The notes under the pieces were generated by a model. The model was not told where the DNA came from. It searched no databases and saw nothing but the letters and a program-made list of their open reading frames with translations. A stretch of 64,000 nucleotides of DNA from contig NC_087245.1 in NCBI RefSeq assembly GCF_037042905.1, positions 14,386,001 through 14,450,000 of the forward strand, written 5' to 3'. Below, in pieces: positions 3,636-61,969 of this stretch (position 1 is its first letter; every line of letters starts with the position of its first letter). The DNA comes from Lytechinus pictus. Its lineage: Eukaryota. A program made the position numbers and the translations under genes.

Positions 3636-3657
3636 ATTATTATTATTATTATAGTAA

Positions 3658-3720
<63 letters not shown>

Positions 3721-3785
3721 AAGAAGTAGTAGTAGTAGTATATAGTTAATATAATAATAATAAGAAGAAGAAGAAGAAGAAGAAA
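3636..3785. repeat. Compound microsatellite (ATT)n-(AGT)n-(AAT)n-(AAG)n
   Basis: Directly visible. Confidence 0.95.
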
Positions 3786-3963
3786 GTGAATTAAAGAATT
3801 AATAGATAAAAATAAGAAATATTCTTGCTCGTTCGAAAATATTGCACTGTGAATAATCTTTGCATGTCAATCATGTTTGATATGCCTTTTCACAAAAATT
3901 AAATCTATAACTTTCATTTCGAGTTTAAACACTTTTAATCGTCTCATTTTTTTGGTTATACAG

Positions 3964-3986
3964 AGCCACGTGGAGGATATCGGTAA
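3964..3986 (+). CDS. Probable terminal coding exon of the tetraspanin (QPRGGYR*)
   Basis: Poly-T ...ggttatacAG acceptor; phase 1 matches the donor at 2837; TAA at 3984-3986. Confidence 0.55.
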
Positions 3987-5109
3987 AATACGCAATGGAA
4001 CCAAAACAATAATAAATAATTATTTATGAATTAACTAGTTGCGGAAATTAATACAAATAAGAAATAATAATTCGGGTAATTTATGCTTGGTAAGTGGATA
4101 TTTTTTCGAAGTTCAATGGTGAGAAATATCACAAAGTTAGAGTTTCAAGGTTAGTTGCAGTGAATGAAAGGTTTGAATATTAAACATGAATATGAAAGGG
4201 GAAACTTCTATATTCAATGATGGTGTGAAAATGACCTTGAAGATTGTGAAGCAAAGTTAATATTGCGAAATCATAATATCTACTAAGCAAAAAGTTTACA
4301 ACTAAACAATTGTAATTTAGAAATCAGTGATGAATGATATATATCACTTTATGAAAAACTGTTTTATTCCAAAATAATTGGTATCATTTTCACCAGGAGA
4401 TACTGTTTTATACAAGAGATCCAAAATCAACTTGCGCCATATATTGCCTCTTTCATTAATTTTTTTTTTAATTCATAAAAACACGAAGAGCAGTACCGTA
4501 AAATGATACCAAATTGTTTGGGATGAAGTTCATGGGGAAGTTTTCTTTCAAAATTATGATGTATAATTATTTACAGTTCATCTAAAGTAATCGGCCATTA
4601 AGAGTTACCTTTGTTTTAAACTCCGGCGCCCGAAATGTTTGGTATGCAGTCGAGATTTTTATTTTTTCGGATTTGTGTATAGTGAGTGAATTAGCAGAAC
4701 ATGTTTGTGCAATCGTCTTTGTTTTTTTGTTCGAATTTCATATTCTTATTATGAAAAGTCCCTTACAGAGGTATGAAATTGAAAAAGATTCAGATAGTTC
4801 TACTGCAATTTTTTCGCAGGATATTCAACACAAGAACCCCGGATTATTATTCAAAGTATGATTATAATAGCTAGTTGCTTGGTGTACCGTCAAACCGCTA
4901 TATACACTCTTTCTACTTCACCATGGAAACCTTCAGAAGTTTTGTGATATTTTTTCCGAGCAACATACATCATCCTTATTCTATTTAATAGGGTTTACAA
5001 TGAAAATATCGTGAAAGAGTGCTGGTTTTAAATTAATCAATAAGCTCATACAACAAGCTGGGCTTATACCAATTGCTTTATAAATATAGATTTATTTTCT
5101 TGCTGCTCT

Positions 5110-5306
5110 CAGGGGCGAATCCAGGATTTTCCAAAAAAGGGTTCAGAAAATTCTGACAAGCAACACACAAAAAAAGGTCTTCACTTTATACGTATGCCAA
5201 ACATTTAACTGAAAATATTTTCACGGCTCTCAATGGCGGGGGGGGGGGGGAGCACGAGCCGGATGAGCCCCTCCCACTCCACCCCCTCCACCTGCATCCG
5301 CCACTG
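5110..5306. mobile_element. Short hAT-like MITE
   Basis: Termini CAGGGGCGAATCCAGG / CCTGCATCCGCCACTG; 8-bp TSD gctgctct / gctgcact (1 mismatch). Confidence 0.75.
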
Positions 5307-7096
5307 GCTGCACTGATTTGATGCTTATAGCTGTGTGTTAATGCATTACTTTAAAAACAGAACCACAACAAATAAAGAGTTTCAATGGGTTATAGAATTT
5401 GTCGCATTATGCCGCCAAATCTTATTGGTCTTTTCTGTGCTTGTCATGCATGTATATTGCAGCTACTTGATCATGTTGATGTTATGCTTATCATTGGTTC
5501 TTTATTACATATGAAAACTACCAAACTCAATCCCCCCTCTCATTTTTCTTTACAATTTTAATTGAATTGTTATAATTATATTATTCTATGTAACTTTTCC
5601 GGCTGACATTATATTTTGCATTTATACCTTATCTTCGGTACTGTATATTGTAAATGGCTGAACAAATATTATTGGAGATTTATTTTTGACAATCGTCGAG
5701 TTTATTTGGGCGTGTGAAACGATAGTAAACAATATATTGTGTCCTCAAATGGAATAATTTTGTGTACGCTCTTCTGTGTGATAGCGAATATCGTGTAAAT
5801 AATGTTGATTTATCATGTTTATATGAATGATAAAATAAATTATTGTAAATTTGTTGAAAATCTTATTTGCGTAAGCCTACTTGAGTGTTTTATAATTATA
5901 CATTATGCAAGCGTGTGCTTTGAAAAAGCCCCTAAACAAACAGATACATTAAATACACGTATATGCACATTCATGTGTATAGGGCAGGAGAGGAGATTAG
6001 CCAATGACCAAACAAAAATCGTTATAATTTTTAGAAATTCACGTTTTCACTTTTGATCCGTTTCTTTGATCTAGGATATCAAGTATATGTATTAAGACTA
6101 TAGCAAATCTGAAATTTTAATAATTTTACCTATTATTCGGTCCAATTAGCACGGCAATGTTGACTTTACATAAGGCTGATAAACACAACAAATACAAGAT
6201 ATTTCTCGTTGTAACATTCTTTTGATGTCGCTGAGCTTTTTACTGTTTTCATAAAATTACATTGATAAAAATACTTTGTATATTATATTTTCTGTTTGAA
6301 TAATAAAATCTGCAGTGTCTTTCTCATGCTAAAATGTTGTTGTTTGTTTCTTATATTTTAGCTTATAATGTGCTTGTTTTTTTTTTTTTTTTTTTTTTTT
6401 TTTTTGGAGGGGGGGTCTGGCGGGACTTGGGTCTAGGAGGGGAAGGAGACAAGTGGACGGGACGATCGAGACAAGATAGATATATATATATTCATCGCTA
6501 ATAGGTATTAGGGCCAAGGGTACCAGGAGCGGGGAGGGGCAGAGGGCGGCATATATGGGCGTGGATGGGTAAAGGATTGAGAGGTCCAATTTGAATGGCA
6601 CAATGTAAGTAATGCTTGGGCCATTATTATGGCAAATATTTACGAATAAATCTGTGAAATTCATACAGGATTAAACAACAAAGTCTAAATTGTCAATAGA
6701 AAAGAGTAAGAGGAGATGAATAAGTGTAACTTTTTGTTGTTAAAAGAAGGTATAAAGGCAAGGGGGAAATGGGGAAGAGAAATGGGCTAAGAGAATAAAG
6801 TGAGGGGCTTGTCAAAAGATAAAAGGTTTAAAGAACAAGAAGGCAAAGAAGAAGAAGAAGAAGGTCGTCGAAGATGAAGAACAAAAAGGAGGAGGAAAAT
6901 AATAAGAAGGAGAACAGAGAGAGAGAGAGAGAGAGAGAAAGAGGGAGCAGGGTGCCAGAATTGAAATTGAATTGAATTAAATAAAAACAATCGATGCATT
7001 TGCGAGGTACATTCTAACTTCTGCCATATCATAGCAAAGACAACGCACCCAACAATTTAATGAGATTGATTGTGCACTCATATTTTTCTCATTTCG

Positions 7097-7193
7097 GGGG
7101 CGTCGTGGTCTAGTGGTTACGACTCTCGTCTTTCAATTTGAGGGACGTGAGTTCGATTCCCAACCATAGCGTGTTTTTCTTCAGCAAGAAATT
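7097..7193 (+). mobile_element. tRNA-derived SINE, 5' head only
   Basis: Pol III A-box-like TGGTCTAGTGG and B-box-like GTTCGATTCC; closely similar to the SINE at 31154. Confidence 0.8.
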
Positions 7194-8105
7194 TCGCTGC
7201 TTCGCTGTATCCTTTTTAAGATTACTGAAAGTGCCTATAATGTCCAGTTATCAGGTCTGAATTAAAAAAAATTAAGCCCGCGTTTCGAACGCGCATGATT
7301 TGATAAGTGAGACATGTATCCTCTTGATGAATTCATACAAAAATCTTTTCAAAAATATTCCCTTTTCAGGTCAATATATAGTCAAAATAGAGGACTCGCG
7401 CTTCACGATCGCAATATTCATTTAGGCCTTATGAAATATGTTTTAATTTATATAAATACATTCATATTCTTGTCGATATTGAATTGAATATAATTCAATT
7501 GAATTTAATTGCGATTAAAAAAGAAAAGATTACAGCCAAAGTGTTATCGAAAGGAGGAATTGGCTTAAAAAGGAAAGAATTAGGGTAGCAAATTCCCCAG
7601 ATGTAATCAAACTGCTGATAAATATACAATCACTGAAACGCAGATCACCAATGAAACAAAACAGCGTGAAAGAGCATATACTAGAGAAAGAGAGAGAGAG
7701 AGATAGAGAGAGGGTGGGGTAGTATAGCAATATATTTTATTTATTTCCATATAAAAATCACTAGCAAAATACATGAAAATCAAGAAATATTTGCGGCGGA
7801 AGTCCATTTTTAATATAAGTGGAATTTACTGAATGGCATTGTTCTTTTGGGGTCCTAAAAATGAGGTATAAGTATATTGCCTCCCCCCAAAAGAAAGACT
7901 CAAGTTCGGAGTGACGCCCATATGCTTCATGGTAGAACTTTGTTGAGTGGATGGGATATGGTCGAGAGGATATTATACCCCCTCCCCCTCGCTCTCCCGA
8001 CCTCGGCCAGACCTCAACCTGTATCGTCGAAAATGTTTCCCAATGGGCCCTAAGCCAGTGCCCTATACCTTGGGAGTGTTGACATTTGCATTTAAAATGC
8101 CTATA

Positions 8106-9026
8106 CAGTGCGTATTAAAAAAAACGGGACAGTTTTGAAAAGTCTATCAAAATTTTGTTTCAAATTATGATGTGTATATGTTAATGTTAATAGATGCTCT
8201 GATTTCTTATCTTTCAAATGCCATTAAAAAAATGAGTTTCGTTCATGCTTGAGCGAACACGAAAGTTTTTGTAAGGGGTTAAAAAAAAGGCTTGCACCAA
8301 ATGGCATAAAATTAGAAAATATTGATCATCAGACTTCTAGCTAGTTTTTATTCAACTTGCTCTCATTTTTTTTATTTCTTCATCAATTATGTTCATATTT
8401 GGAATATATGATCCTTAATATGTGTCCATGAGGATGATGAGGTCGAAGGTCATCTAGGGGTCAAAAGGTCAAATGATATTTATTCATGTCCATCCTTTTT
8501 TGAAGTTTTTGTTCAACTTGCTCTCATTTCTTTATTTCTGTATCAATTACGTTCATACTTGGTACATATGATCCTTGGGTAATACTACATGTGTATCCAT
8601 GAAGATACACTTTCACTGCTGTAAGATACCATATAAACAAATACAGAACAATTCAAGTAAGATTTCAAAATGAATAGAATTCGAAAATCTTTTTATGGCA
8701 AAGATAATGAAAAGATTAACAGGAGATTTACTGATTAGATTCAGATTTATTTCCAACAGAACATAAAGAATAAGCAATTAATTAGCAAGAATTCTGATGA
8801 TCAATATTTTATGCCATTTGGCGCAAGCCTTTTTTTTTGAACACCTGACAAAAACGTTTCGTGTTCGCTAGCTCAAGCATGAATGAACGAAACTAAATTT
8901 TTTAAATGGCATTTGAATTAAAGATAAGACATTAGAGCATCTTTTAACATCAAAATATAGACATCATAATTTGAAACGAAATTTTGATAGACTTTTCAAA
9001 ACTGTCCCGTTTTTTTATACGCACTG
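8106..9026. mobile_element. Tc1/mariner-type non-autonomous element with ~230-bp TIRs
   Basis: TA|CAGTGCGTAT...ATACGCACTG|TA; long inverted repeats ~8106-8335 vs ~8790-9026; internal direct repeat ~8343-8420 / ~8504-8577; no transposase ORF. Confidence 0.85.
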
Positions 9027-10109
9027 TAGTCAGGCGCTCCGGAACACTTTCAGTTTTAGGGGGGCAAAATCCCGAAGGGGGCACAATATTTTTGACAGCG
9101 TGAGTTACCGAAGCGATCGAGCGGGAGAGGGTGTGGGACCCCCCACGGTAAGGACTTTGTGTAAAAATGGAGTATAAAAGTTGCGTTTCTAAGAGCATTC
9201 AAAAATAAATTTCTTGAGAAGTAAACATAGAATTCACTACGAAAGCCTATACTCATAATTTATGAGAACCTATGATATCTACGCGCAAAACGATCGCTTC
9301 GGAATGTGGTTTTCATGTCTGATCAACTAAATTACGTATTACGCTTATATTGACTCAAACTACCAGAAATTACATTTTCATGCAATATCCTTTCAGAAAC
9401 ATTTATTTGTGTACATTTACATACACGGACGACGCGAGAGAGCACAATCATCATAATTTTCAAGTAATTCATGTCAGAACAAGGAGTGTATTAAGCAGAA
9501 GCGTAACAACAGAAGCAAAAGAAATTCTAATTAATGTCTTTTCAAATTCAAAATGTCATACTGTTCTGACGTGGCAGACGTCGATAAGCGCTTAAATCCC
9601 CAGTCTATGCAAATCATTTCTGACATCAGCATTAGAGATAGTCCCTGATTATCCATGCATGGGCAATACGTTTCATATTTTGTAACTGGAGGAAAAAGAA
9701 ATATGACAAGCTTAATTGTCTAACAATTTAAAACTTTTCTGAAAATCATTAAAGTTTAAAACATTACTCGATTTATGTGTTTCCTTTTTGCATGTTTTGT
9801 ATGGCTGGGAAGCACTTTTGGATGACTCCTTCAAAATCTTCTTTTTTCTTTACATATTTTCTGGGGAAAATGTGACCATAACTAGGAAATGATGAATATC
9901 AAATTCCAGGAAATATTCATTTGTAAATAATCATGAACTGATTAACAAACTACCGCAGTTCATAATGTACATTATGTAACATTATTTAGAAGAAAACAAT
10001 TACATTCCAATAGCGGATGTGGTTGACGGTACACCATGTGGAGTTTTCGAAAAAGTGGATAGAGGAAGAAGTGAAATTGATATATATAGGGGAGGAAGTG
10101 GACAGTTGA

Positions 10110-10352
10110 TAGTCGAGTAAATTTTTTTTTAATGAGCGTAGTCCTGAAAAAGACAGTAAACCAGAAAAGGTTGAAGAGGCTTGAGTAGTTGATAGATGAG
10201 TACTCCTGCTCTGCACTCCATTCGCCGACTCAAGCTAGCATCTTCTCATTTATCCAATAATCCAACTACTCAAGCCTCTTTAACTCTTTAACCTTTTCTG
10301 TTTTACAGTCATTTGCAGAACTACACACATTTTCAAGAAATATTACTCTAGG
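10110..10352. mobile_element. Degenerate hairpin-type MITE remnant
   Basis: cagaaaaggttgaagaggcttgagtagttg is inverted as caactactcaagcctc...aaccttttctg; termini eroded. Confidence 0.5.
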
Positions 10353-10431
10353 ACCTATACTCTCAATATTCCAATTTCCCGCCTCGAGATGTTATGGTTT
10401 CTGGGCTTGACAGCTATGACATAGATTCCAT

Positions 10432-10722
10432 ATAATAATAATAATAACAATATAGGGTATTTATAATGATATTTATATCCACCTTGTTAGGTGCTCAAGG
10501 CGCTCAAGGCGCTCCTATATTACCCGGCTAAGCTAGGCGTTCATAGCGCACACAGCTTTTTAAGGAATTACTTCCTACCGGTACCCATTTACCTTACCTG
10601 GGTTGAGTGCAGCACATTGTGGATCAGTTTCTTGCTGAAGGAAATTACGCCATGGCTGGGATTCGAACCCACGACCCTCTGTTTCAAAGTCCGAAGACTA
10701 ATCCACTGGGCCACAACGCTCC
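10432..10722 (-). mobile_element. Full-length tRNA-derived SINE
   Basis: The minus strand begins GGAGCGTTGTGGCCCAGTGG (A box) ...GGTTCGAATCCC (B box), followed by the central domain tgcactcaacccagg...aaatgggtacc and an (ATT)n tail. Confidence 0.9.
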
Positions 10723-11114
10723 ACACAATGTTGCTCGAGTAACTAGCGTTCACGCGCGTTAGTGATATCGGGTCCGGTCTGAGCGTTTCTTGGCGACAGC
10801 GCTTCCGGCGCCCATGACTGTAGTACATCAATACCCAATCAGTAAACCGGTCAATAAAAGGGTAAATTGCATAAGAGATGATCAAACACTGAGCGAAGGA
10901 CGCAATTTGCATGTCGGCTCGTGATGGTTTAATAGTAGGTCCTATGAGCATAGGCCATAGCTATGGTATGAGCAGGGAAGTATAACACTTCCCTGGTATG
11001 AGCATTGCAGGGCTGGGTTTATTGCAAGGAGATGAGCTCTGCACGCAATTACAGCTGGACAACCGATTTGGAAAATGGCAACTTTTGTCACTGCCCGACA
11101 GTAGTTCATCAAGG

Positions 11115-11289
11115 ATGGATGCGTGGCGGTATGTTATTGTCGTAGCGAAGTTCATGTGCCACTTCATAGCCGTTGGACTGGTCAAGTCACTGTCAGTTCT
11201 CATCCCACCCTTGGTCATCCAACTCGACATCGAGCAAGCGACCGCTGGCCTTCTCGTTTCAGTGCAATTTGGAGTGTATTTGATGGCTA
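11115..11289 (+). CDS. SLC16/monocarboxylate transporter-family MFS protein, coding exon 1 (start may be ATG 10998)
   Basis: AWRYVIVVAKFMCHFIAVGLVKSLSVLIP resembles SLC16 TM1; GTAAGT donor at 11290, phase 1, joins exon 2 as ...LMAS-PISL. Confidence 0.8.
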
Positions 11290-11539
11290 GTAAGTAATTC
11301 AACTTTCACCTTTTCTTTTGTTCGGCAATCAGCAGTATCCTGTACGTAGCTGTACTGGCTGATTTGCTGCACAAATTGGAGAATATATATCTTTTCTGTA
11401 GTGATATGCAATCTTAATCACTATTGGTGATGAGAAGGAGGTGGGGGAGGGGAAGGGGTGAATTAACAAAGGAGATACATCAACAAATTAAAGCCATGCC
11501 TTCCCTGAAACCGTACAAAACTGGTAATTGCAAGTTAAA

Positions 11540-12338
11540 GAATCATTGTTCCGATTTGGCTGAATAGAGCCAACAACTTGATGTTGATGGTACACTCATT
11601 AGACCATCAGAAAAAATACGAAACCTCGGTGTCATATTTGATTCCCGCATGTCAATGTCGTACCATATCTCTCATATCTGTAGCACAGTCACTTTTTATT
11701 TAAGGAACATTTCTAGAATCAGAAGCGGGATCAGAAGGTTCATTGACCAGTCTGCCTGTCACAATGCTGTTCGTTCATTGGTTCTGTCTCGTATCGATTA
11801 TTGCAGGCTCCTTTCTATATATATATACAATTCCCTCTAATCAATTAATCCGTATTCAACGACTACAAAATTGGGCAGCACGATTAATTTTACATGTTTC
11901 CCGAGATCATCCTTCCCAACCACTCTTTAATTCTCTTCACTGGCTTCCTTTTAAACAGAGAATTACGTTCAAATTACTCTTGATTGTCTACAAAACACTG
12001 AATAAACAGGCTCCACAGTATTTAAGTAACTGCTTGAATCTGTATACGCCAACTAGAGCACTTAGGTCGGCCAGTGATCACCTTCGCCTCACATATTCAT
12101 TAACTCGTACACAAGCTGGTGACGGAACTTTTACGGTGTCGGCTTCAAAATCCTGGAACGACCTGCCACTAATAATTAGACAGTCTCCAACATTAGCAAT
12201 TTTCAAAAAGTCATTAAAAACTCATCTCTTTCGTACTTTGTAGTTTTTAAAATATTACATTTAATTAATTCATTGTAAGCGCTTTGGGCCTAATGGGAAA
12301 AGCGCAGTACAAATAATAATTAATAATGATAATAATAA
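11540..12338 (+). mobile_element. 5'-truncated L2/CR1-group LINE (RT C-terminus and 3' tail), frameshifted
   Basis: NLGVIFDS, SRIDYC, LQNWAARL, LHWLP, WNDLP motifs; 3' end gtaagcgctttggg...aaaagcgc...aaat followed by (AAT)n. Confidence 0.9.
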
Positions 12339-14149
12339 CACATATCATGATTGATTTGAAATACGTTTACTTATAGCGAAAAAAAAAGAAAAGAAGCGAT
12401 TTCTTTAAATGAATATAGGACATTTTTCTGAAGATCTGAAGAAATTCATGCATGCCATCCCCGGGGCAAGCTCGTTCGTAGGCAAACACAGACCCTATGG
12501 GTCTTAAGACGAGTCCAGCACCAATTTCATACACACTGGTCAGTGGTCAATAATTAATTCCCAAGTAGGCTTAAAATTCAAACCCCTTAATTGTTAAAGA
12601 AAACGAATATCCGGGGTTGTACTTCAAGCTATACTAATGAGTCACGTTACCAAGTAGCGTTCGTTCTCAACCGAGTGGAAATTCAAAGTGATAAGGAAAT
12701 GATTATTGACCTGATAGAACAGCTATAATTATACGCATTAGATTTAATTCACAGTAAATGGTGACCTTGTGTCGGATGGTAGCCTACTCATGATTATACC
12801 ATAGAGCTATTAATAGCTCCATGATTATACAAGAACGTAAGTTTTTCTTATGGTCAGACCACTGACATCACACCTATAATAAAAATGTGGTTTCCATGTG
12901 TGCTTTCAACTTGAACGTAATTATTTATTTATTTATTCAACATATTTATACAGGATTAATTTAAAGAAACAATTATCGATGCAGCAAGGCTGTTTTCATC
13001 GATGTCATGTTAAAAGACATCTATACATGCATACAAATCATTTCCAATTATAACAATAGAGATCTAAAAAATAAAGTAAAGTATATATGAAGTAAAAAGC
13101 TTAAGTAGATTCAAAGAGGATTATGTCAGAGCAGTATCAGGTTAAAAATAAGAAAAGGACAACATACAAAGCACATGTGCGACCAAATACGCACTCTTGA
13201 TAACACGCACCGTCACTCAACATTAAACACACCCTCCTTTCTCTCACCCCCCCCCCCTCTCTCTCTCTCTCTCTGCACCCCCGCCTTCCTCGTTCTCCCA
13301 ATCTCATCCTCAGTCACACGTAAGACACTCCCATACTCAATCAATGGATTCTCAACAAAAACATTCAAAATCAACCACACACATAAGACCTCAGCGGTTT
13401 AATAAAGTTATGAAAAAAAAAACTTAAGATGAGTGGAGAAAAATATGAGGATTGTTGATCAGGGGAATCTCACCTAAAACAAATAATAGCAGATTAGTAG
13501 ATTAGTATTATTTGTGATACATGAAGGCATTTTGCAGTTGCAATTGCTTTCAACGCTTACCGAGATTTGTAGTTCGTAAAAGTTTGAATTGTGTAGCCTA
13601 TCCCCGCGAAAGTTCTCGTAATTTTGACAAGTACCTACTATTTAGTGGGTTCCTTTTTGGGGGGAGAATACGCGTAATTTGCTTTCATTCTTGCCAATAT
13701 TACCTGGTATTTCCCGATAAGAAAATACCTGGAACTGACGAACTTCGAGGCGGTCTAAAACCACCTTTTGTATAAGTTTGAAAATTTGTGCTATCTTTTT
13801 TGGTTAGAGATTTCCAGGATACATTCTTAAATCACATGAGAGATAAGATCATGCAGCGGATGGCTTAATGTCCAATTGTCAAGCGTAATTTGCAAGGGAT
13901 TTCATGCAGTAAGTGGGTTATTTGGCACAATAGGTCCATGTTTGGCATGGGTTTCATTTAGAAATGAAGACAACAAGGACTAGGGCTCGTTGTCTGAAAA
14001 AAGTGCTATAAATTGCAAGAAAACTCTTTATTGGTGCATTATGCGTTATTAGGCATTGTACTTCTTGCAATTGAAGGGGTTTCTTTAACATCTTTCCTTC
14101 TGTTATCACGGATGCTTTTCTTTACGTACATCAGGAATCTGTTAGGAAG

Positions 14150-15220
14150 CAGGGGCGGATCCAGCTTTCGCCAATAGGGGGGGGGGGGGGGGGGCCGAAA
14201 AATATTTTCATCAACATTTTTCTCGATTGGCCGCTATAATCTGATTTTTTGTTGGTTTTTCAGGGGGAAGTCCTAAGTAAAGACTGAAGTTTTAAGGTAT
14301 ATGTCAGTTTTTATTGTTATAAACAAGATAAGGTATCTCATGTGGTTATATAATGCGAGCGCAAAGTGCGAGCTCAAATTCTTTGATATTTTATGTTCTT
14401 AGACCTGAAGATTCTGAGGAGATTTTATAATCATGAAATAAGATAAGTATCCAACTAAACAATGCAAGCGCGAGTCGAAATTTTATTATAGTAACGTGAA
14501 AAGGGACTCGATGAGGACCGTTTTTTAGTAATTAATGAAGAGGATATAAGTATCACCAATTAAATAATGAGAGTGCGAAGCGCGAGCTCAACATTTTTGA
14601 TATTCCGACCTGAAAACTGGACAGTCTAAGCGCGTTTTTATTTAAATAAAGAACAAGCTGTGTGTCTCAAACAATTAAATGCGAGCGCGAAGCACGAGCT
14701 TAATTTTTTGATATACTGACATGATAAAGGAGCATTTTGACAAATTTTGGTAAGAATTTCCAAAGAGTATAGGTAACTCACAAATCAAACAATGCGAGCG
14801 CGCAGCGCGAGCTGAAAATTTTGATATATATAAACAATTTGTGTAAATCAAACAAAATAATGAAAGCTTGATGTGCGAGCTAAAATATTGTGTGCAAATT
14901 GATTTCAGAACTGAATATATATGTGCCATTTAATCCTCTTGAATGGGATTCATTACACAGGCAATGCGAGCGCGAAGCGCCAGCGAACATTTTTATATAA
15001 AGTCTATTTTCCAATTCTTCCCCTCACCTTTTTCTTGTTTCCTTTCGGGGTCGGGCCAGCCGTTACGAGGCTGTAAATTACCCATCATGGGTATGATACC
15101 TCTTTCTTTTCTTTCTGTTTTTCATAGTTTCTATCAAGTCAAAGTGTACACTTTTTTCTGCAGGTTGTCAAAAAATAGGGGGGCCGGGGCCGGCTCGGCC
15201 CCCTCATGGATCCGCGCCTG
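14150..15220. mobile_element. GCGGATCC-family non-autonomous DNA element (~1.07 kb)
   Basis: Termini CAGGGGCGGATCCA / TGGATCCGCGCCTG; flanking 5-bp repeat ggaag; near-colinear second copy at 37259-38299. Confidence 0.85.
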
Positions 15221-15349
15221 GGAAGGATAATAGTAACAATAATAATAACGGTATATTCACCCAGGGTATACCCACTTCAGTTCCGTTCACTCCCAGCGGG
15301 CCCTGCTATTATGTTTAGGAATATACCCGCCTAGTACCAGCCCATGTCT

Positions 15350-16070
15350 GGTTGTTTGTTTGCTTTATTTTTCACCATGCATAACAAGAAATAAATTGAC
15401 AGAATATAATGATACATGGATAATAATAATACACAGTAGGAACTAAGCATAAACAAATAAGTGTTTGAAGTGCGGGACCCTTAAATAACATCGTGTGTAT
15501 AAGTAACTCGTTTAACTAAAACATGTCTCGAAATAAGCATTCATAAAAACCAGAACAAAATTAAATTAATACAATAACTAAAATAATGCTCCTAAAGCAT
15601 ATTAAGATATGGACATCATTATTTGGAGTATTTGGAGAGACATAAATCCTTTATCCCGGGCCTTTATCCTTTTTGAATGATAAAATATTGTTACAAATTG
15701 GTATATTAAAAGGTAGTGAATTACAAATGTTAGGTCCTACATATTTTATTGATTTATGAGCTAAGGCACTTCTTGGAGTGAATAAATGAAAACCAAAATA
15801 TGTCTAGTTGGATAGCTATAAATGTCTCTATTCAAAGTAAAATCATCATGAAATTATAAAGGTAACTAATTTTAATTCAAGTGATTCATTATGAATATCA
15901 GTAACTTTCAATGTTTTCAGTCTATACAAAATAAAGGATCAGCATGTGCAAAATATCCCGACCCAGTACAAAGCCGCACGGCTCTCTTTCGTAATCTTAA
16001 AATGCAATCTGTATTTACTTTCTTGTAATTGACCTATGCTATATTGCAATATGAAATCCTAGAGTGAATG
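15350..16070 (-). mobile_element. Decayed 3' fragment of a CR1-group LINE
   Basis: The minus strand encodes YCNIA*...LRLRKRAVRL...AHADPLF, a typical post-RT motif, with stops. Confidence 0.7.
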
Positions 16071-16482
16071 AATGAATTCACGTGACGAGCCGACGATAAG
16101 ATTCATTAATGTCTTCCAATACAGACATGTTCATTTGGCGACAGTTTCTCGGACCAACAAGATAAAAGTCTAACTTGGCTTGTCCAGTTAATCATGCATT
16201 GTGCGTTACTACGTTTAGTGGGCATAAAATGTATCTGCAAAGAGAATTAATAACTATAATTCGAGTAACATTAAAAGTTGATTACCTAAGATTCACGCAA
16301 GAACGCACATTATAGGCCTACACGCACAGTGAGTGAGCTCTAAAATAGCACGAATTGTCAGAAAATGCTGCAATTTATCAATATTGTAAGTAGTTAAAAA
16401 GTTGTTTATGTCTTTTTTTACGATTCTTTCATATTATGTTGGCATGAATATATCACAAGGGCTTCCTTTTGGTCTCCATAAC

Positions 16483-17159
16483 CAGAGGCATCGTTCCGGG
16501 GGGGGGGGGGCGATCGCCCCACCAATGAAAATATTGGGGGCAAACATAATTCCGTATGTGCAAAAATAAAATAAGATTGTAATGCTACACAGATATCGGC
16601 AAGCGAGATCGAGATACACAACTCGTTCTTTATTTAAAATCGTGCTCAAGATGTCCGCTTTTCAGATTGGAATATAAGAATTTTCAGCTCGCGCTTCGCG
16701 CTCGCATCATTTCTATAGCAAAATCCCATACTTTTCATGATTAAATATATAGGTGAATAGAATGTCCCGTTTTTAGTTCTCAATCTCAAAAGAACTCCCG
16801 CTTCGATTTGCAATAATCGTTTATTGGATATACATCTTGTTCTGTATTAAAAACGTCATTTAAATTGTCAATTTTTTAAGATCAAAATATCAAAATTTTT
16901 AGCTCGTGAGCTTCGCGCTCGCATTCATTGTTATTTTAGATACCCATCTTAATCATTTTTGCCAAAATGCTTAGAATATCAAACTTTCAGGTCAGCATTT
17001 AAAGAAATTTCAGCTCGCTCTCTGCACTCGCATTATCCGTTAGTGAGGTATGTATCCTCCTCATGAGTTACTACAAACAGTCCAAAACAGGTACCCTTTT
17101 CCTGTTTTCAGGTTAGTATACTAAAAAAATTCATATATATATATATGTCATATATAGAC

Positions 17160-17219
<60 letters not shown>

Positions 17220-17231
17220 CATACATAGGCA

Positions 17232-17306
<75 letters not shown>

Positions 17307-17443
17307 TATGTGTATGTGTGTGTGTATGTGGGTTGGTGAGTGTGTGTGCGTGAGTTAGTTTGTTTTGTGTGATCGAGCGCCTTTGGAACGTTGATTCATG
17401 ATTTGCCCCCCCCCCCCATCTGAAAAATGGATCGACGCCCCTG
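16483..17443. mobile_element. hAT-like non-autonomous element containing a (TA)n/(TG)n microsatellite (17133-17350)
   Basis: Termini CAGAGGCATCGTTCC / GGATCGACGCCCCTG; 8-bp TSD tccataac / tccgtaac; inverted relative at 53682-58500. Confidence 0.85.
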
Positions 17444-18600
17444 TCCGTAACTAATTTGAAATTTACAATAGAAATTGATCCAAAACGATGCTTATCGCCT
17501 CTTCAGAAACCAGTCGCCTCCGACATGGAATGTCAAATCCCCATGGAATGCTTTGTCAATGATTGGGATTCTTTTGTATTCCCTATATAATTTTGTATTC
17601 AATTTAGAAAAGAAAAATGTTGTTAATAAAAGAATATGCAAATTGATTACCAATGAAAATAAGGAAGTAACAACACATGAGGATATTACATCAGAAATTG
17701 TTTCTTTTTATTCACAACTATATGAAAGGCACCCTGTTATAAATATTGATTTAAATGCAATGATAAACAAAGATGAACTAAATAAATTAACAAATGCTAT
17801 GTCACGGAATTTAGAAGGAGAGCTCTCCACCGACGAGGTTTATTATGCCCTAACAAATATGAAAAACAATAAATCTCCTGGTCTAGATGGATTCACTGTT
17901 GAATTTTTTAAACATTTTTGGAAGGAAATCCATATATTTTTAGTTAGATATTTAAACTATTCATTTTTATCTGGTATGCCTTACATACAGAAGTTAGGAG
18001 TTATTACTTTAATCCCCAAAGGAAGTAAAGATAGACACTATTTAAAAAATTGGAGACCCATATCATTATTAAATGTTGTATACAAAATAGGATCTACTTG
18101 TATAGCTATTACATTGAAGAATGTACTCCCTCTTCTTATTCATGAGAATCAGAAAGGGTTTATGTCCGGACGCTTTATCGGAGAAAACATCCGCTTGTTA
18201 TATGATATATTATTATATACTGAATTAAACGATATTCCCGGTTTATTGTTACTTATAGATTTTGAGAAGGCATTCGATTCAATTTCTCATGACTTTATTC
18301 GCAATGTACTACACTTCTTTAAATTTGGTCCGACCATTGTTAAATGGTTTGATGTGTTTTATGAAAATGCTCAATCTTGTGTTTTAATCAATGGAAACCT
18401 ATGAGGCGCCGAATGTACCAATATTATATAGAACAATTATTTGTTATATAATCATTATTTATTAAATAATAACTATTATTTATATATAATTTACATTTTA
18501 TTTGTAAATAACTACTATTATATAAAATAACATTTCTAATTATTTATATATAATTCCAAGTAATACTTCATTATTTGTAAATAATAATAGTTCGACATTC

Positions 18601-18990
18601 CATTATTTATAAATAATGATTATTTGTTTTTCATTATTTATAAATAATGATTATTTGTTTTTCATTATTTATAAATAATGATCATTTGTTTTTCATTATT
18701 TATAAATAATGATTATTTGTTTTTCATTATTTATATATAATGATTATTTGTTTTTCATTATTTACAAATAATGATTATTTGTTTTTCATTATTTATAAAT
18801 AATGATTATTTGTTTTTCATTATTTATAAATAATGATTATTTGTTTTTCATTATTTATAAATAATGATTATTTGTTTTTCATTATTTATAAATAATGATT
18901 ATTTGTTTTTCATTATTTACAAATAATGATTATTTGTTTTTCATTATTTATAAATAATGATTATTTGTTTTTCATTATTTATAAATAATT
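18601..18990. repeat. 31-bp minisatellite, ~12.5 copies, left arm of the foldback
   Basis: Unit cattatttataaataatgattatttgttttt; each unit carries the 20-bp palindrome tcattatttataaataatga. Confidence 0.95.
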
Positions 18991-20531
18991 TGTTGAGTTT
19001 TCCATTATTTATAAATAATGATTATTTGTTAAATAATGAAAACGTCTACTTCATTATTTATAAATAATTTTTTCGAGTGCACCATTATTCTCATTATTTA
19101 TAAATAATCATTATTTAATGTTCGAGTTTTCCATTATTTATAAATAAAGATTATTTGTTAAATAATGAAATATCTACTTCATTATTTATAAATAATAATT
19201 TTGTTTCAATATCCCATTATTTATAAATAATCATTATTTATAAACAATTTTTACAGTTTGCCATTATATACAAATAATCATTATTTATATACAAATAACC
19301 ATTATTTATTAAATAATGCCATTATTTATTAAATAATGGAAAACTCGCTATAACATGCAAATGTGTTTACGCGCGTCCTGCTCCCCCCAACCCCCCCCCC
19401 CCCCCGGAAAAAATTCTGCGTAAGGCCATGATGATAATGAGATAAAAATAATGAAAATGAAGTATACATAAATCAATGTGCCAGGCTCTTTAGAGCATGG
19501 CCGTATACAGAATTTCTTTCGGAGGAGGGGGGGGGGGAAGCAGACGCGTAAACGTTCTCAAGTTGAAAGCGACACAGCGAAGCGACCAAGCTTGTCATTT
19601 GGGCACTTTTTGGAGTTTTAAAAGTGAAATACGAAGGCTTTCGTGCACACTTTTGGTGAATTTTGTGATAATTTTCAATAGAAAAATAAGTTTTAAAAAA
19701 ATTAGGGGTCATCATGCCCCCGTATTGTCGTTGCGAGCATTTTGGGGCCAGGGTGAAATCGCCCCAAACGCCTCAAACAGACACTCCAAAATGTATTTGA
19801 AGTGCATTATTAGAACTGAAACTTATCTCTACACCAGGAAAAATTAACTTAACAAAAAAAGCAACAAGAAATATTTATAAAAAGTAGAAGGGCCTGTACA
19901 AGTACACTGATATTTCACTCTCTCAGCTCATATGCACTTGATCGACTTCCATCGAGGATTCGGGCTAAATTCCGCCCGCCACTTCCGGGGACCAACCAAC
20001 GTAGTATTTCGATGAAGAGCACTCCGTCGATTCACCGGTTGTCCCTACCGTACACGCGCGCCTATGGGGATTGTGAACTGTAGGAAAAATCGTATAAAAT
20101 TACACTTTTTGATATTTCTACGAAGACGAAGTTATATAGAAAATGAAGAATATTACAATCAGACCATATCCCTAGAAAATTGCTTCAAGAAATGTCATTA
20201 TGAAGAGGAAATGGACAAAAATTTGTGAAGAAAAATCACGAAAAAGGAAATCGCATCATGAATATTCATATCATGGGCGGTCCCACATTTGCATGTTATA
20301 GCGAGTTTTCCATTATTTAATAAATAATGGCATTATTTAATAAATAATGGCATTATTTAATAAATAATGGCATTATTTAATAAATAATGGTTATTTGTAT
20401 ATAAATAATGATTATTTGTATATAATGGCAAACTGTAAAAATTGTTTATAAATAATGATTATTTATAAATAATGGGATATTGAAACAAAATTATTATTTA
20501 TAAATAATGAAGTAGATATTTCATTATTTAA

Positions 20532-21115
20532 AGGAGAATGAAACCCTTGAAACCAGCTGAATCCATATCAAAGAGAAAAATCAAAGAAACATATTGTTGA
20601 AAGTTTGAGGAAGATTGGATAAATAATAAGAAAGTTATGAGCATTTGAATATTGAGATCACTAATGCCATGTAGATCCTCCTATTGGCAATGCGACCAAG
20701 ATCTGTGATGTCACCCACGTACAACTCCCTCATTACTTTAGTACTTATTTCACTTATATTCTCACTTTTATAGAGTCTATCACAAGGTGAGGTGTTCTCT
20801 TTATGAGAGGACAAGTACAGAGGTTTCACAACATTATATCATTGATGAATCGTTTGTCATATGATTAGAATGAGCAAAAAGAGATGTTTTGGGGTATATT
20901 TTCAGTGTCCAAAAGGGGAGAGTTGTTCATCTGTGACATCATAGATCTTGGTCGCATTGCCAATGGGAGGATCTCCATAGCATTAGTGATCTCGACATTC
21001 AAATGCTCATAACTCTTCTATTGCTAGTCCTATTATACTCAAACTTTTGTTGATCTTATTCTTTGATTTGTCTGCTTTCACAAAAGCTAACTTGCTCCAA
21101 GAGTTTCATTCTCCT
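20532..21115. mobile_element. Kolobok-type MITE inserted in the right arm of the foldback
   Basis: TTAA|AGGAGAATGAAAC...GTTTCATTCTCCT|TTAA; ~180-bp imperfect inverted repeats; the left arm has a single TTAA at the mirror site (~19158). Confidence 0.88.
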
Positions 21116-21286
21116 TTAACAAATAATCTTTATTTATAAATAATGGAAAACTCGAACATTAAATAATGATTATTTATAAATAATGAGAATAATGGTGCAC
21201 TCGAAAAAATTATTTATAAATAATGAAGTAGACGTTTTCATTATTTAACAAATAATCATTATTTATAAATAATGGAAAACTCAACA

Positions 21287-21676
21287 AATTATTTATAAAT
21301 AATGAAAAACAAATAATCATTATTTATAAATAATGAAAAACAAATAATCATTATTTATAAATAATGAAAAACAAATAATCATTATTTATAAAGAATGAAA
21401 AACAAATAATCATTATTTATAAATAATGAAAAACAAATAATAATTATTTATAAATAATGAAAAACAAATAATCATTATTTATAAATAATGAAAAACAAAT
21501 AATCATTATTTGTAAATAATGAAAAACAAATAATCATTATATATAAATAATGAAAAACAAATAATCATTATTTATAAATAATGAAAAACAAATAATCATT
21601 ATTTATAAATAATGAAAAACAAATAATCATTATTTATAGATAATGAAAAACAAATAATCATTATTTATAAATAATG
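21287..21676. repeat. 31-bp minisatellite, inverted copy, right arm of the foldback
   Basis: Reverse complement of 18601-18990 with the same copy number. Confidence 0.95.
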
Positions 21677-24301
21677 GAATGTCGAACTATTATTATTTAC
21701 AAATAATGAAGTATTACTTGGAATTATATATAAATAATTAGAAATGATATTTTATATAATAGTAGTTATTTACAAATAAAATGTAAATTATATATAAATA
21801 ATAGTTATTATTTAATAAATAATGATTATATAACAAATAATTGTTCTATATAATATTGGTACATTCGGCGCCTCATAGAAACCTGTCTCCCAGATTTTCA
21901 ATAGAGCGGGGCTGTCGCCAAGGAGATCCATTGTCTCCATATATTTTTCTATTATGTGCTGAAATACTTGGCGTTTTGTTTCGACAATCAACGTCAATAG
22001 ATGGTTTGAGGATGCCCTCTGGTAAATGTCATAAAATATTACAGTATGCAGATGACACTCTTCTGACATTAAACGGTTCAGAAAGAGAATTGAGTAGTGC
22101 TTTTGACATCTTGGAAAAATATAAAACAATATCAGGTTTGACTGTTAATATAACCAAGACACATGCAATATGGATTGGAGGATATAAGAACAAGAAAGAC
22201 TGTATTCTTGCCAATAGGAATTTGAATTGGGTATTTGATGAATACTTCAGATATTTAGGTATAGATTTTTGTACAGATCTTCAGAAAATGACGGTGCATA
22301 ATTACAATGAAAAGTTTAAAGAGATCAAAGGTCAAATGACTTCATGGTTAAGACGTTACCTGACGGTCCTGGGAAGAGTTACGGTTGTCAAGTCATTGTT
22401 TGTGTCTAAATTGAACTACTTAATTCTTTCTCTCCCGAATCCAAGTGAGTTATTTCTAAAAGATGTAAATTCCCAATTTCATAGATTCATATGGGGAGAG
22501 AAACCAGATAAAGTAAGTAGAAATCAAATGTCTCAGAGTTATTCTGAAGGTGGAGTAAAAATGATAGACATAAATCTGCATTGCCAGTCATTGAAAATTT
22601 CTTGGATGAAAAAAAATGATAAACGGTTCCATTGACGGTAATATTATTTGTCTTCTTCAGTCTTTTTTGCATAAAACGCAAAACTTGGATCTTTATATGG
22701 GAAATAGCTATTTTTTTAGACTGGCACACGAAATTAAAAATCCCTTTTGGAAAGAAATGTTCTTAGCTTATAGCACACTGTTATCTATGCACTGTAATGA
22801 TATACCTTGCCAACCCTTATGGAATAATGATTTTATCAAAATAGGTAATAGCTCAATTCACAGTAGATCTCTAAATAATAGGGGTGTTCGTTTTGTTAAT
22901 GATATTTTAGATGTACATGGCAATTTCCTCTCTTTGAATGACCTTAAGGAAAAATACAATGTTCAAATAAATTTTATTTTTTACCGTGGATTATGTGATG
23001 CTATAAGAGACGGTTTTAGCAATGGCACACACTTTAGCAAGTTCCAAGAACCTATTATCCCTGATACAATAGCACTTGTTATGAAATATAATAAAGGTTG
23101 TTCACACATCTATACGATTCTTAAAAAGAAAAGAAAAGTGGAATGTAAAAGTTTCCTTAAGTGGAAGTGTATATTCGATATGAATGACAAGCAATGGCAA
23201 TCGTATTGCTCTATTGGATTCAGTTGTACTACCGATGTGAATTTACGTTGGTTTCAGTTCAAAATAATGCAACATATTTTATATACAAATGAAATATTGT
23301 TTAAAATTAATTTAGCTCAACAAAAAGAATGTACTTTTTGTAATGTACACCGTGAAACAGTTACTCATCTACTTTGTGAATGTACATGTATTAAACATAT
23401 ATGGGACAGGTTTGAACAATGGATATTTCTTAAAACTGGAAATAAATTTTTTTTCTCTAATAAAGAAAAATTATTTGGTTTAAGAGGTTCAAGTAATTAT
23501 GCATTAAATTGTTTATTGATAGTGATACGACAGATGATCTATACTTCCAGAGTAAAACATCAATTACCTGTTTTTGATAATATCAAATTTGCACTTCAGA
23601 ATTATTTCAAGAATGAAAAATATATCGCAGAGTCAAATTGTAAAATGGTAAAGTTTACAAAGAAATGGTTTCAATTACGTGCCATGTTTACATGAAGTGA
23701 TCTGTTCAGTTCCCTTTCCATGTACAATGATACATATGAATATTATTGTTCATTTACTCCTTGCTTGTTCCTTAAATTGTTTACTATTATGTAAACCTGA
23801 CAGTTCAATTTATATATTTGTTACAATTACTGTTGTATTGTATTTCGTTGTTATTAATTTGATTTGTCATTGAAAAGATATCTTGTTATGTTTTGAATAA
23901 TAATAAAATCCCTGTGGAGGGGAAACAAATTGAAAAAAAAAAATAATAATAATTTTGTATTCCTATCATTCCTAACACATCCCTGCGTACATGAAGTAGA
24001 AGGGAATTCCGTAATCGATATGGTATAGTTCCTTTGGTTCCAGCCCGATAGTCCGCGGGTCTGTTAGTCCGCGGGTCCGATAGACCGCGGTGTGTGTAAA
24101 ATTATGATCAGGATATAGTGAGATCCAATGTCATCAAGAGGTCAAAACGCCAATGATACGAGTCCATGGGGTTCTATAACGATGACACAAAGGACAATCG
24201 CCCCTGTGACATCTTCTTCAAGGAAAATATTATCCCCATATTTTTATCGTCGGGGACTGTTACTCCCCCCCCCCCCCCGTAAATTTACACTCTAGACGCC
24301 A

Positions 24302-28464: not shown

Positions 28465-28800
28465 TTGCGCCCCCGGTCGAAAATGAATTTGCATGAAGCC
28501 CCCTAAGTTCAAGGTCAATTTGGCACCCTCGGTTGAACATAAACTTGGCGCCCCCATGTGAAATATAAATTTTCCCTCCCCCCCCTCTGAAACATGTATT
28601 TGTCGCATTATGGTCAAAATTCAAATTAGCGCTCCCCTAGTTCGAACATCAATTTGGTGCCCCGCTTGATCGAACATCAATTCGGCGCTCCCCTAGTTCG
28701 AACATCAATTTGGCGCCCCCCTCCCAGTTCAAACATTAATTCGGCGCCCCATAGTTCGAACGTCATTTTGGCGCCGCCTAGTTCGAACATCAAATCGACG
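28465..28800. repeat. ~29-bp tandem repeat (aatttggcgccccctagttcgaacatc-like)
   Basis: About 9-10 diverged units, subterminal in the hAT-like element. Confidence 0.8.
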
Positions 28801-29596: not shown

Positions 29597-29753
29597 GCGG
29601 ACTATCGGACCCGCGGATTAACGGACCCGCGGACTATCGGACCTGCGGACTAACGGACCCGCGGACTATCGGACCCGCGGACTATCGGACCCGCGGACTA
29701 TCGGACCTGCGGACTAACGGACCCGCGGACTATCGGACCCGCGGACTATCGGG
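29597..29753. repeat. 16-bp tandem repeat gcggactatcggaccc, ~10 copies (~3 inverted copies at 24045-24090)
   Basis: Directly visible; subterminal array of the foldback element. Confidence 0.92.
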
Positions 29754-32610: not shown

Positions 32611-33083
32611 TAACAGGTAATAAAAAAGGATCATGACTCAGGAAGGGATGCCAGTTCCGAGCTGCAAGTTGACAACCAGTCGGTGAGTCTAGTCTCCAAC
32701 GGATCCAATTCGTTCTTTGCTCTTTCTTTTCAAGCAGGTATTACGTCTTTGTAATATATTCATGTTGCTAGAGACTATTATGACTAATATGAGTCTTTTA
32801 TATTGCGAAGATAACGCAGAGACCGGCTGAATACTAACATCATCGCAACTTAAGAGACCACTCACGTCTCGGGACTAACTTGTGAATTTGGATGTTGCAT
32901 TGTATATTAGATTCTACGTCTATAAGAAAGTTCCTTCATGATTCGTCAAGGCCGGCACGCGTTATCAACAAAAGCAGCAACACGTGCTGTTGTTTAGATA
33001 TCCTTTTTAAACCCATTTCAATTTTTTTCTTCATACGTAATCTATGTTAATGCATTATTTCGATGTACACTTTATTGTCCTAG

Positions 33084-34175
33084 GTCTTTGCCTTTCGCCA
33101 TGGAGGCAGATATCAAGTGAAATCCTTCATCAGCACTTCGGAGAAGGGTTTGGACTAGCTACAACAATTACCCATCTGGGTGACCACCTCGGGAATTTTT
33201 TAATGCCGTTCCTGGCCTTGAAGTGTTTCGATGCCTATGGACTCAGGGGATGTTTATTGATCCTGACTGCTATAGTTTTTCACGGGGTACCTATGGCAGC
33301 CACATTGCGACCTCCACGATATTCAGAGGGTAGATTTGAAGAAGATAATGGTAATCGAGAGGACGATACTAAAGATGGCGTATTTGAGCCGCTTCAGCCA
33401 CATTGTAGCAGTACTGCGGACAGTGCCAATCAGACTCGGAATGAGATATTCCCATCAGACTCCACTGATTTATCCACGAATATTTTGAAGCAACCGGTGA
33501 GGCATGGGTTTGATCAAGATGTTGTTAGTGACTGTGAAATTGATCCGCTTAAATCAGGTAGCTATGAGATGGACAGTGCCAACCAACCTGAGAGTGAAGG
33601 AATCACAGTAGATGCAGATTTTATGTCCCCTAGGTCGAATGAACCAAATGAAACGCGGAATCTCCTGCATTCAGCTTACAACTTAATATGTAATGTGGTA
33701 CATGATATGTTCAGCTTCGCGAAGAAGGAATGTGTTTTTACATTTCTGTTGCTTCCCTGTCAAGTTTTGTTCGATATATCATACTGCTGCTGGGAAGTGT
33801 TTCTCTTCTCTTATGGAATATCCGAAGGATTGACTAAATATAAAGCCGCCTATCTTTTGGTTATGGGTTCCGTTGGGGGTATCATGGGACGACTTTTACT
33901 TATCGCAGTCCTCTACAAGCATCCATTACTGACCACGCACCTCCTGACATTCAATCTCGCAGTATCATCATTCGCACTCCTAGCCTATCCTATCAACTCG
34001 TCTCTGACATACTTGTTAAGTATTTCCTTCGTTGCCGGCTTTGGATTTTACGCTTCCTACTCTGCACTCTTCGGTACTTTCCCACTGAAAGTGCAAAAGG
34101 AGAATTTTCCTACGGCCATGGCGTGCTCTCTGATGCTGTGCGGAACTGCATATCTTATCTCAGGATTGCTCGCAG
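33084..34175 (+). CDS. SLC16-family transporter, exon 3 (mid TM4 to TM11 with the long central loop)
   Basis: ttgtcctAG acceptor, GTAAAG donor, phase 1/1; YGLRGCLLILTAI...AATLRP is a typical SLC16 TM6 motif. Confidence 0.92.
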
Positions 34176-34856
34176 GTAAAGATGAATACTTGATCATTGG
34201 GCAGAGGAGAGGGCATTCAGTAATACAGTGGGGGGGGGTGTATTGAGGAGTGCGCATGCACCCAGGGGGAGTAATGTCTTGTACAAGATTAAACCGATTC
34301 TCAAGTTTTAAAATACAAGAAAACACTTGGATCACAGCAATTTATTGGGTGCTCAAAACCAGTGTCATGGCGGACATTTTTAAATTCATCCATATTTTCA
34401 TATCTACGATATTCGTTACTTTTCCCTTGCTGGTGTAAGAAGGTTTATCATTATTTTTCATAATAAAGCCAATTAATTAAAGGGAAATAGTCCTATCGTA
34501 TTAATGACCATGTACATAAAAATTGTCCGTCCTTGAAAGGAACAAATGCCAAACATTAATTTTCTCCACCCTCGTGGCAGCCAGATATATCACTATTTTT
34601 TAAACAATGGAATGATTACGAAACTCTAATAAAGTTTATAAACATGAAATTGATAATCAGATTTGTTCTCATGGAATTTGTTAAGAATGCTTGAAAAATA
34701 TTACCGATGCAATTTAGAGGTTTCTTAAGCATTCTCATGTAAAAAGTATTTTACATATATTCACTAATTTGATGCAACTGTTTTGGTAATATGAATATAC
34801 AAACTTACAAAAACAATTTTCCAGATGATCTTTTACCGTTCTTGCTTCATTTTCTT

Positions 34857-35025
34857 TATTATTATTATTAGTAGTAGTAGTAGTAGTAGTAGTGGCAGTA
34901 GTAGTAGTAGTACTATAGTAGTAGAAGTAGTATAGTAGTCGTAGTAGTAGTAGTAGTAGTAGTCGTATTAATCGTTATTATCATTATTGTTATTTGTTAT
35001 TATTATTATTATTTTATCATTATCA
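34857..35025. repeat. (ATT)n/(AGT)n compound microsatellite
   Basis: Directly visible. Confidence 0.9.
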
Positions 35026-35132
35026 TTTCAAATCATCATCAAAGTTAATACCATCATTCACTGCTAATAGTGACAGGCTTTCGTGTATCGTTGGTAACGT
35101 AATGCTATTTACCTTTTCTCTTTTTATAACAG

Positions 35133-35284
35133 GTTTCCTGTACAATATGTTCGGTTCATACCGGGTTGTCTTTCGCATCTTAGGTATCAGTCTTGCCGGG
35201 ATCTGCATGGTCATCTTGATTTACATCTTCGTTGATTCGGTACGAAGTAAGAAGAGAGCACGGTCAAGATTAGAGAGGGAGTAG
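35133..35284 (+). CDS. SLC16-family transporter, terminal exon (GFLYNMFGSYRVVF...RLERE*)
   Basis: ttttctctttttataacAG acceptor, phase 1; G.LYD..GSY-type motif followed by TM12 and TAG. Confidence 0.9.
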
Positions 35285-56328: not shown

Positions 56329-56567
56329 AAAAAGCGTTCAATAACAAGGAATACAAATACAATCAAGTACATGGGAAAGAAATACTCTATAGACAGAGAG
56401 AAAAAAAATTGAAATCGGGGGAGGGTGGGGAGCTGCAGAGAGTGTAAAAAAAAAAAAAAAAAAAAACTTAACAATCAAAGTACAACAAATCAATAACAGT
56501 TTTAGACTTCAACAGTAAAAACAGTGTAGTAAGCTTTAGAGGTGAGTCAATGCAGGCAAAGTTTGTT

Positions 56568-61805: not shown

Positions 61806-61969
61806 CACATTTTACTATTTTTTTAAATGAAAAAGTAGGACCTTTGATGTTTTTATTCAGCATCGGGTTACATGATTCATTCGGATGGTTTAAGCATGAT
61901 ATAAAGCTGACTTCTAGCATCAATGTGTATATTTTGACCCCCTTCTTTTATTTGTAATTTTTCAACAGG

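Follow-up and report, generated by a model that had tools for sequence, protein, structure and literature searches.

The window analysed here is a stretch of 64,000 nucleotides (64 kb) from the genome of the sea urchin Lytechinus pictus (NCBI RefSeq assembly GCF_037042905.1, contig NC_087245.1, positions 14,386,001 to 14,450,000 of the forward strand), and all coordinates below refer to it. It contains a 3,478-bp sequence (18400–21877) that is a real, mobile DNA insertion with TA..TA ends and a 6-bp target-site duplication. The explanation that we hold to be likely for the whole is a young, non-autonomous, foldback-type transposon in a long interspersed nuclear element (LINE), which was moved in trans by an enzyme of the IS3EU/GingerRoot superfamily, and whose arms were amplified and later underwent drift and a hit by a miniature inverted-repeat transposable element (MITE). 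The foldback design as such is already known; what is new here is probably an IS3EU-type version of it. The parts of the insertion and of its target are given in Table 1.

Table 1. Parts of the foldback element and of the interrupted LINE (ORF, open reading frame; RT, reverse transcriptase; TRF, Tandem Repeats Finder)
Feature	Position	Strand	Basis or detail
Host target: 5' part of LINE ORF2, first half of RT	17472..18399	+	Pfam RVT_1 1-109, E 5.6e-15; frame 17472-18404
Left 6-bp target-site duplication, GAAACC	18394..18399	+	Single copy in empty-site contigs of three of four runs
Left long terminal inverted repeat, 966 bp, starting TATGAGG	18400..19365	+	Arm alignment; loose ends of other copies
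Left arm, outer domain: GC-containing tip, then degenerate AT-rich half-sites	18400..18597	+	
Left array: 12 full 31-bp units and a partial 13th	18598..18989	+	20-bp palindrome and a third half-site per unit
Left arm, inner domain: degenerate palindromes, 129-bp duplication, two 20-bp palindromic units (19299-19338)	18990..19365	+	
Hairpin of about 190 bp with C-run/G-run arms	19366..19555		Self-match E 5e-13; DNA fold of 19360-19560, -42.4 kcal/mol
Middle domain, non-coding	19556..20283		39% GC, 31 CpG in 728 bp, without arm half-sites
Right arm, inner part, with four 20-bp palindromic units	20284..20531	-	67- and 141-bp blocks, 40-bp gap; TRF 20311-20430
Nested Kolobok-type MITE, 584 bp, ends AGGAG..CTCCT, long imperfect inverted repeats	20532..21115		TTAA at 20528-20531 and 21116-21119
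Right arm, outer part, with mirrored 31-bp array at 21288-21679	21120..21877	-	758-bp block, six mismatches
Right 6-bp target-site duplication, GAAACC	21878..21883	+	Sequence comparison
Host target: remainder of LINE ORF2, second half of RT, then zf-RVT	21884..23695	+	RVT_1 114-203, E 4.3e-12

The insertion is flanked on both sides by GAAACC (18394–18399 and 21878–21883) and ends in TAT..ATA, the left tip being TATGAGG and the right tip its reverse complement. This length, these termini and this duplication had been read from the letters alone in an earlier note on the same DNA, and they are borne out, with an empty site in three of four public sequencing runs. The LINE reverse transcriptase is interrupted between positions 109 and 114 of the RVT_1 profile, and the final base of both GAAACC copies lies in the identical codon phase across the insertion. 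We take the split ORF2 to be Tx1/L1-like. Its downstream part has a zf-RVT match (E 8.7e-6) slightly below the curated cut-off, and a frame change near 22610–22635. Within the same target region, the stretch 17523–17582 belongs to another repeat, and at 17601 the LINE stops or is interrupted; upstream of that point, contigs of runs X15 and X3 carry other sequence.

Of 21 public runs listed, 18, from eight studies and under six organism labels, contain part of 18100–22200, and contigs of four runs were compared with the window over 17480–18590. The site is found empty, with a single GAAACC, in three of these four (X1, X15 and X3), where the LINE contigs depart from the window at 18400 and resume it at 21885, with a single difference in one of the contigs. 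They could stem from an allele without the insertion or from a paralogous copy of the LINE; the target duplication is fixed in either case. No contig among the pieces listed for the four runs bridges the filled junction, so that this particular insertion rests on the assembly; we do not take the missing contig as absence of the insertion. That gap, together with the short span over which the read contigs were compared, would suit an inverted duplication made by the assembly itself. Such an artefact is barely credible, since an exact 6-bp duplication stands at a site with an empty form in three runs, one arm alone holds a nested element flanked by a TTAA duplication of its own, private substitutions set the arms further apart, and in other runs the identical terminus adjoins many flanks that are unrelated to one another.

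The window alone also permits ends of the type CTA..TAG with a 4-bp duplication (AAAC), which the earlier note had offered as an alternative parse. The terminus was therefore called from loose-end contigs of other insertion sites, represented by 18 records among those listed. Twelve of them break at 18400 (one in X1, 11 in X3) and six at 18399 (one in X15, five in X3). Because CTA..TAG requires a C at 18399 in essentially all records and 12 of the 18 lack it, the end is TAT and the duplication 6 bp long, and the alternative parse is rejected. Six such records are compatible with flanks that happen to end in C (P 0.09 if C makes up 18% of the bases, 0.28 if it makes up 25%). The loose ends in X3 agree with their consensus at 0.46–0.49; their flanks are therefore unrelated and represent many insertion sites.

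Many diverged copies of the outer arm domain are present in run X3. The listed pieces of X15 have only the outer 58–76 bp in common with the element, which suggests that related families may have an identical tip and different interiors. Depth at the terminus (54.7 in X1, compared with 3.4–3.8 for the LINE; about 3,000–17,600 in X3, compared with about 1,600) hints at many copies, and is neither a copy number nor used here as one. Within the window, no second copy of the terminus, the arms, the middle or the nested MITE was found, the matches being weak AT-rich ones or having E values of 0.003–0.05. No viral contig matched either the 18-mer of the terminus or a 41-mer from the array. Four metagenome matches to the terminal 19-mer (L001–L004) are rejected as chance; all diverge directly after the motif and are otherwise unlike the window.

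The global alignment of the arms has 966 columns with six mismatches, in blocks of 758, 141 and 67 bp that contain six, zero and zero mismatches, respectively. The right arm (20284–21877) is 1,594 bp long and has additions of 588 and 40 bases compared with the left arm. The 588 bases (20532–21119) are a 584-bp element plus one TTAA, and the 40 bases (20351–20390) are two more 20-bp palindromic units. Near-identical inverted arms of about 965 bp, as originally described, are thus present, but the right one is interrupted by these extra bases. When the nested MITEs are subtracted, the element is composed of two arms of about 1 kb flanking a 728-bp middle. The inverted arms are long, modular and furnished with tandem repeats, as in foldback elements generally, and the middle, as in non-autonomous foldback copies, has no conserved coding frame; the foldback architecture proposed earlier, in a non-autonomous form, is supported by both.

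Each arm carries 12 full 31-bp units and a partial 13th, close to the 12.5 copies first estimated; the TRF count of 15.0 includes degenerate flanking units. The 20-bp palindrome that had been noticed in the 31-mer is confirmed, and is perfect in eight places of the left arm and six of the right arm, and in no other place of the window. Each unit consists of a head-to-head pair of half-sites and a third half-site. Counting both orientations, the left arm has 66 copies of the 7-bp half-site and the middle domain none; 30 of these occurrences lie outside the left array, compared with a mean of 2.4 and a maximum of 9 in 2,000 shuffles. A length of 31 bp corresponds to about three helical turns, and the helically phased palindrome is a candidate binding site for an IS3EU transposase. 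In Galileo, the DNA-binding domain of the transposase is reported to recognize sites within tandem repeats of its long terminal inverted repeats (TIRs) (PMC3688188). By analogy, the palindromes most likely represent a multiplied binding site of a putative dimeric protein that pairs the ends. An array that is only a satellite, or one of CRISPR type, is rejected: there are no spacers, and the array lies inside the arms of a transposon.

The element is non-autonomous. Fifty stop-to-stop frames of at least 25 amino acids overlap 19340–21150, the longest having 117 amino acids, and 33 of the 50, all but 17 frames of 25–38 amino acids, were scanned against Pfam, a scan confined to frames that reach into this internal region. 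Of the 33 frames, 32 gave nothing and one gave a match to DUF6165 below the cut-off (E 0.028), which agrees with the absence of coding capacity claimed at first reading. Rfam returned three matches, all to microRNA-precursor models far under their gathering scores, and these reflect hairpin shape only.

The middle domain retains CpG (31 in 728 bp, compared with 16 in 922 bp and 27 in 1,812 bp of the LINE), and contains, near 19970–19990, words that we take to be a GC box and an Ets-like motif. Speculatively, the domain could be what is left of the parent element's promoter. The hairpin of 190 bp that precedes it begins exactly where the inner end of the left arm stops and, judged from this single locus, is probably a second nested MITE, possibly with a TA duplication. 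A weak 38-bp match to this hairpin (E 0.049) lies at 53240–53276.

The 584-bp passenger of the right arm has a TTAA duplication and RR..YY termini (AG..CT), the two features by which Kolobok elements are defined in the parts of PMC9587614 consulted. This likeness to Kolobok-type TTAA MITEs concerns the passenger only and not the foldback element. By eye, a homologue is recognized inside the internal consensus of KolobokP-N1_LyPi (PMC9587614, supplement 3), where it ends at TTAA and where the next tandem unit of the same consensus holds the empty form of the site. The presence of a homologue at another TTAA site makes the 584-bp MITE an independent mobile passenger. The same parts of PMC9587614 contain no family name of its own for this MITE, and the homologue is apparently unnamed there.

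In its modular plan the element resembles Tetris, Tm1, Galileo, Drosophila FB and sea urchin TU: all have arms with outer, tandem-repeat and inner domains, a non-coding middle, nested insertions and differences in arm length. It differs from them in having a 6-bp rather than an 8–10-bp duplication, TA..TA ends and a repeat unit built around a perfect palindrome. As described in the passages cited, duplications are 8–10 bp in Tetris (PMC4079207) and mostly 9 bp in Tm1 (PMC3169594), published foldbacks are placed in Mutator or P, and the structure is thought to arise independently across superfamilies (PMC4079207, PMC3169594). A classical foldback of the Mutator or P type (FB, Tetris, Tm1, Galileo or TU) would account for the arm layout, which is that of Tetris and Tm1. 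No direct repeat of 7–10 bp flanks the element, and the 8–10-bp duplication of such elements is lacking; this possibility, taken together with the CTA..TAG ends discussed above, is therefore very improbable.

The combination found here, TA..TA termini with a 6-bp duplication (the latter at one locus), is that of IS3EU and GingerRoot. In the published description, TA..TA ends are invariable in complete IS3EU families, the duplications of these families are usually 6 bp long, and GingerRoot is the same lineage (PMC10045372). Of 77 GingerRoot copies, 72 had TA..TA ends; their duplications were mostly of 6 bp and their TIRs 100–150 bp long (PMC6839031). The signature named in the earlier note thus matches the published definition, and its end has been fixed with other copies. 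The genome annotation of another sea urchin includes IS3EU (PMC13745590). In rust fungi, its ends are TAYGG in the passage available (PMC12730594), and the tip of our element matches four of these five positions, the fifth being A instead of G. From the ends and the duplication length only, we regard the element as probably a derivative of the IS3EU/GingerRoot superfamily, with which it has in common the TA..TA ends, the 6-bp duplication, the TAYG start and the annotated presence of the superfamily in animals, a sea urchin among them. It differs in being without a transposase and in having 966-bp arms with tandem palindromic arrays, compared with TIRs of 100–150 bp in Selaginella GingerRoot and of 'over 30 bp' in rust fungi, as given in the sections cited.

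Several observations tell against this account. No contig bridges the filled junction, as noted above, and both flanks are known at one locus only, so that the 6-bp duplication is a sample of one. No transposase or remnant of one was found in the 33 of 50 frames scanned. By eye, the first 11 bases agree with three fungal consensus rows at six (IS3EU-1_PGra), six (IS3EU 1B_PGr) and five (IS3EU-1_TuIn) positions; the Repbase rule, in the part consulted, calls for 10 of 11 terminal bases in common with a known member (PMC4455052), and the element falls short of it when compared with these rows, which are distant references and none of them animal. The arms are far longer than the TIRs published for GingerRoot, and hAT6 elements and Polintons likewise make 6-bp duplications. 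The role of the palindromes as binding sites is itself putative and has to be counted here as well.

The same non-autonomous foldback might instead have been moved by a hAT6 enzyme, a Polinton/Maverick integrase or an unclassified superfamily, and this we consider unlikely. Animal hATs include hAT6 families with 6-bp duplications, Polintons have such duplications and also long TIRs, and the departure of the tip from TAYGG at position 5, with the five or six of 11 bases in common with fungal IS3EU ends, would suit another enzyme. The tip departs, however, at positions 3 and 5 from the end consensus YARNG, which is that of hATs at large and not of hAT6 in particular. Polintons require AG..TC termini, as stated in the cited part of PMC6839031, whereas the element has TA..TA, and TA..TA together with 6 bp is the combination stated for IS3EU/GingerRoot.

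Neither an IS3EU foldback nor this family was found in the searchable open literature, a search that did not extend to subscription journals, Repbase Reports, Repbase or Dfam; the family is likely to be undescribed. Tandem arrays have been tied to IS3EU-like repeats in Hydractinia centromeres (PMC11934779) and in two oyster satellites (PMC8268682), in passages that mention no foldback arms.

How the two arms came to be so similar can be read in part from their variants. Those of units 5 and 6 are identical in both arms, while changes private to one arm are found in units 2, 3, 8, 10 and 11 and at 18530; the pattern reported earlier, with units 5 and 6 mirrored and a few other changes confined to one arm, is confirmed, the private changes being those of five array units and of 18530. 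Variants common to both arms imply that, at some time, one of the arms originated as a copy of its partner. The arms diverge by 0.6%, so that either the element is young or the copying was recent. The base present at 18530 in contigs of X1 and X2 is that of the right arm, and the left-arm base is therefore probably a later mutation. In unit 11 of the left arm, the change is the same as the variant of unit 6, suggesting that units of the array have exchanged sequence.

The first reading had left recent copying and homogenisation side by side. One copying event is supported by the mirrored variants; ongoing correction is not, given that the 588-bp insertion, the 40-bp length difference and six substitutions persist. 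A stronger form of the latter would have the similarity of the arms maintained by an active process, or the arms remade from each other through snap-back (hairpin-templated) copying that accompanies mobilisation, with the palindromes acting as DNA structures rather than protein sites. It could draw on the exact mirroring of units 5 and 6, on the single difference in 594 positions outside the array, and on the ability of single-stranded units to form hairpins (three units, -19 kcal/mol). We think it improbable. The differences just named are still private to one arm, and five of the six substitutions sit in the array (5/372, compared with 1/594 outside; Fisher p 0.034), the opposite of strong correction there. 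Folded alone, one 20-bp palindrome forms only a weak hairpin (-3.8 kcal/mol), and young age with one founding copy event accounts for the identical pattern. It is likewise doubtful, to about the same degree, that three propositions hold jointly: an IS3EU/GingerRoot foldback lineage of sea urchins as a third origin beside Mutator and P, hairpin-templated rebuilding of the arms at mobilisation, and helically phased palindromes serving as a multimerised binding platform for the protein of the element. Taken by itself, the part that concerns the superfamily is probable.

On the account of a young IS3EU/GingerRoot foldback, an integrase-like DDE transposase of this superfamily, acting in trans, would cut at the TA tips, and the same enzyme would make the 6-bp staggered cut in the target. 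The arms, by analogy with Galileo, may have grown by tandem amplification of a short AT-rich half-site. Palindromes recurring every 31 bp would offer extra sites for a dimeric transposase or a helper protein, and so might aid the pairing of the ends. The copying of one arm from its partner would date from about the time at which the family spread, or from shortly before it, and would have left the mirrored variants. Afterwards the arms would have drifted, by six substitutions and a 40-bp change in unit number, and an unrelated TTAA-targeting MITE would have hit the right arm.

Other features of the window lie outside the element. A gene resembling monocarboxylate transporters of the major facilitator superfamily is found at 33041–35284 (+), the frame of its first exon being 99% identical over 81% to a L. 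pictus protein and having Lytechinus proteins as all ten of the matches listed, which agrees with this sea urchin as the host; a 448-amino-acid open frame with no Pfam match (61958–63304, +) is probably a long exon of a host gene. By eye, further LINE-like frames of other types are recognized at 11704–12243 (+), 40258–42573 (+), 44675–45331 (-) and 54028–57380 (-); among these, a 270-amino-acid ORF1-like frame adjoins a 769-amino-acid endonuclease/RT-like frame. The same 16-bp minisatellite unit occurs in opposite orientations at 24045–24090 and 29597–29752, possibly in a dispersed element with a minisatellite. Six 28-bp tandem units with an 8-bp palindrome each (28621–28797) are followed by a 550-bp pyrimidine tract, and this palindrome resembles what we take to be the B box of RNA polymerase III promoters. 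A GC-rich array at 58964–59631 is built of 41-bp sub-units in higher-order repeats of 99–124 bp and 223 bp.

The structure and function of IS3EU are described as largely unexplored in the passage cited (PMC11934779). With its clean ends, a demonstrable empty site and a palindromic, phased repeat, the element offers concrete test material for the IS3EU transposase. If the assignment is true, the convergence on foldback structure, seen in Mutator and P, would be extended to an integrase-like superfamily. Arms of this kind are plausible seeds of satellites and inversions, as in Tetris and Galileo. For the sea urchin itself, no function of the element is apparent, and it is still selfish DNA built to a familiar plan.

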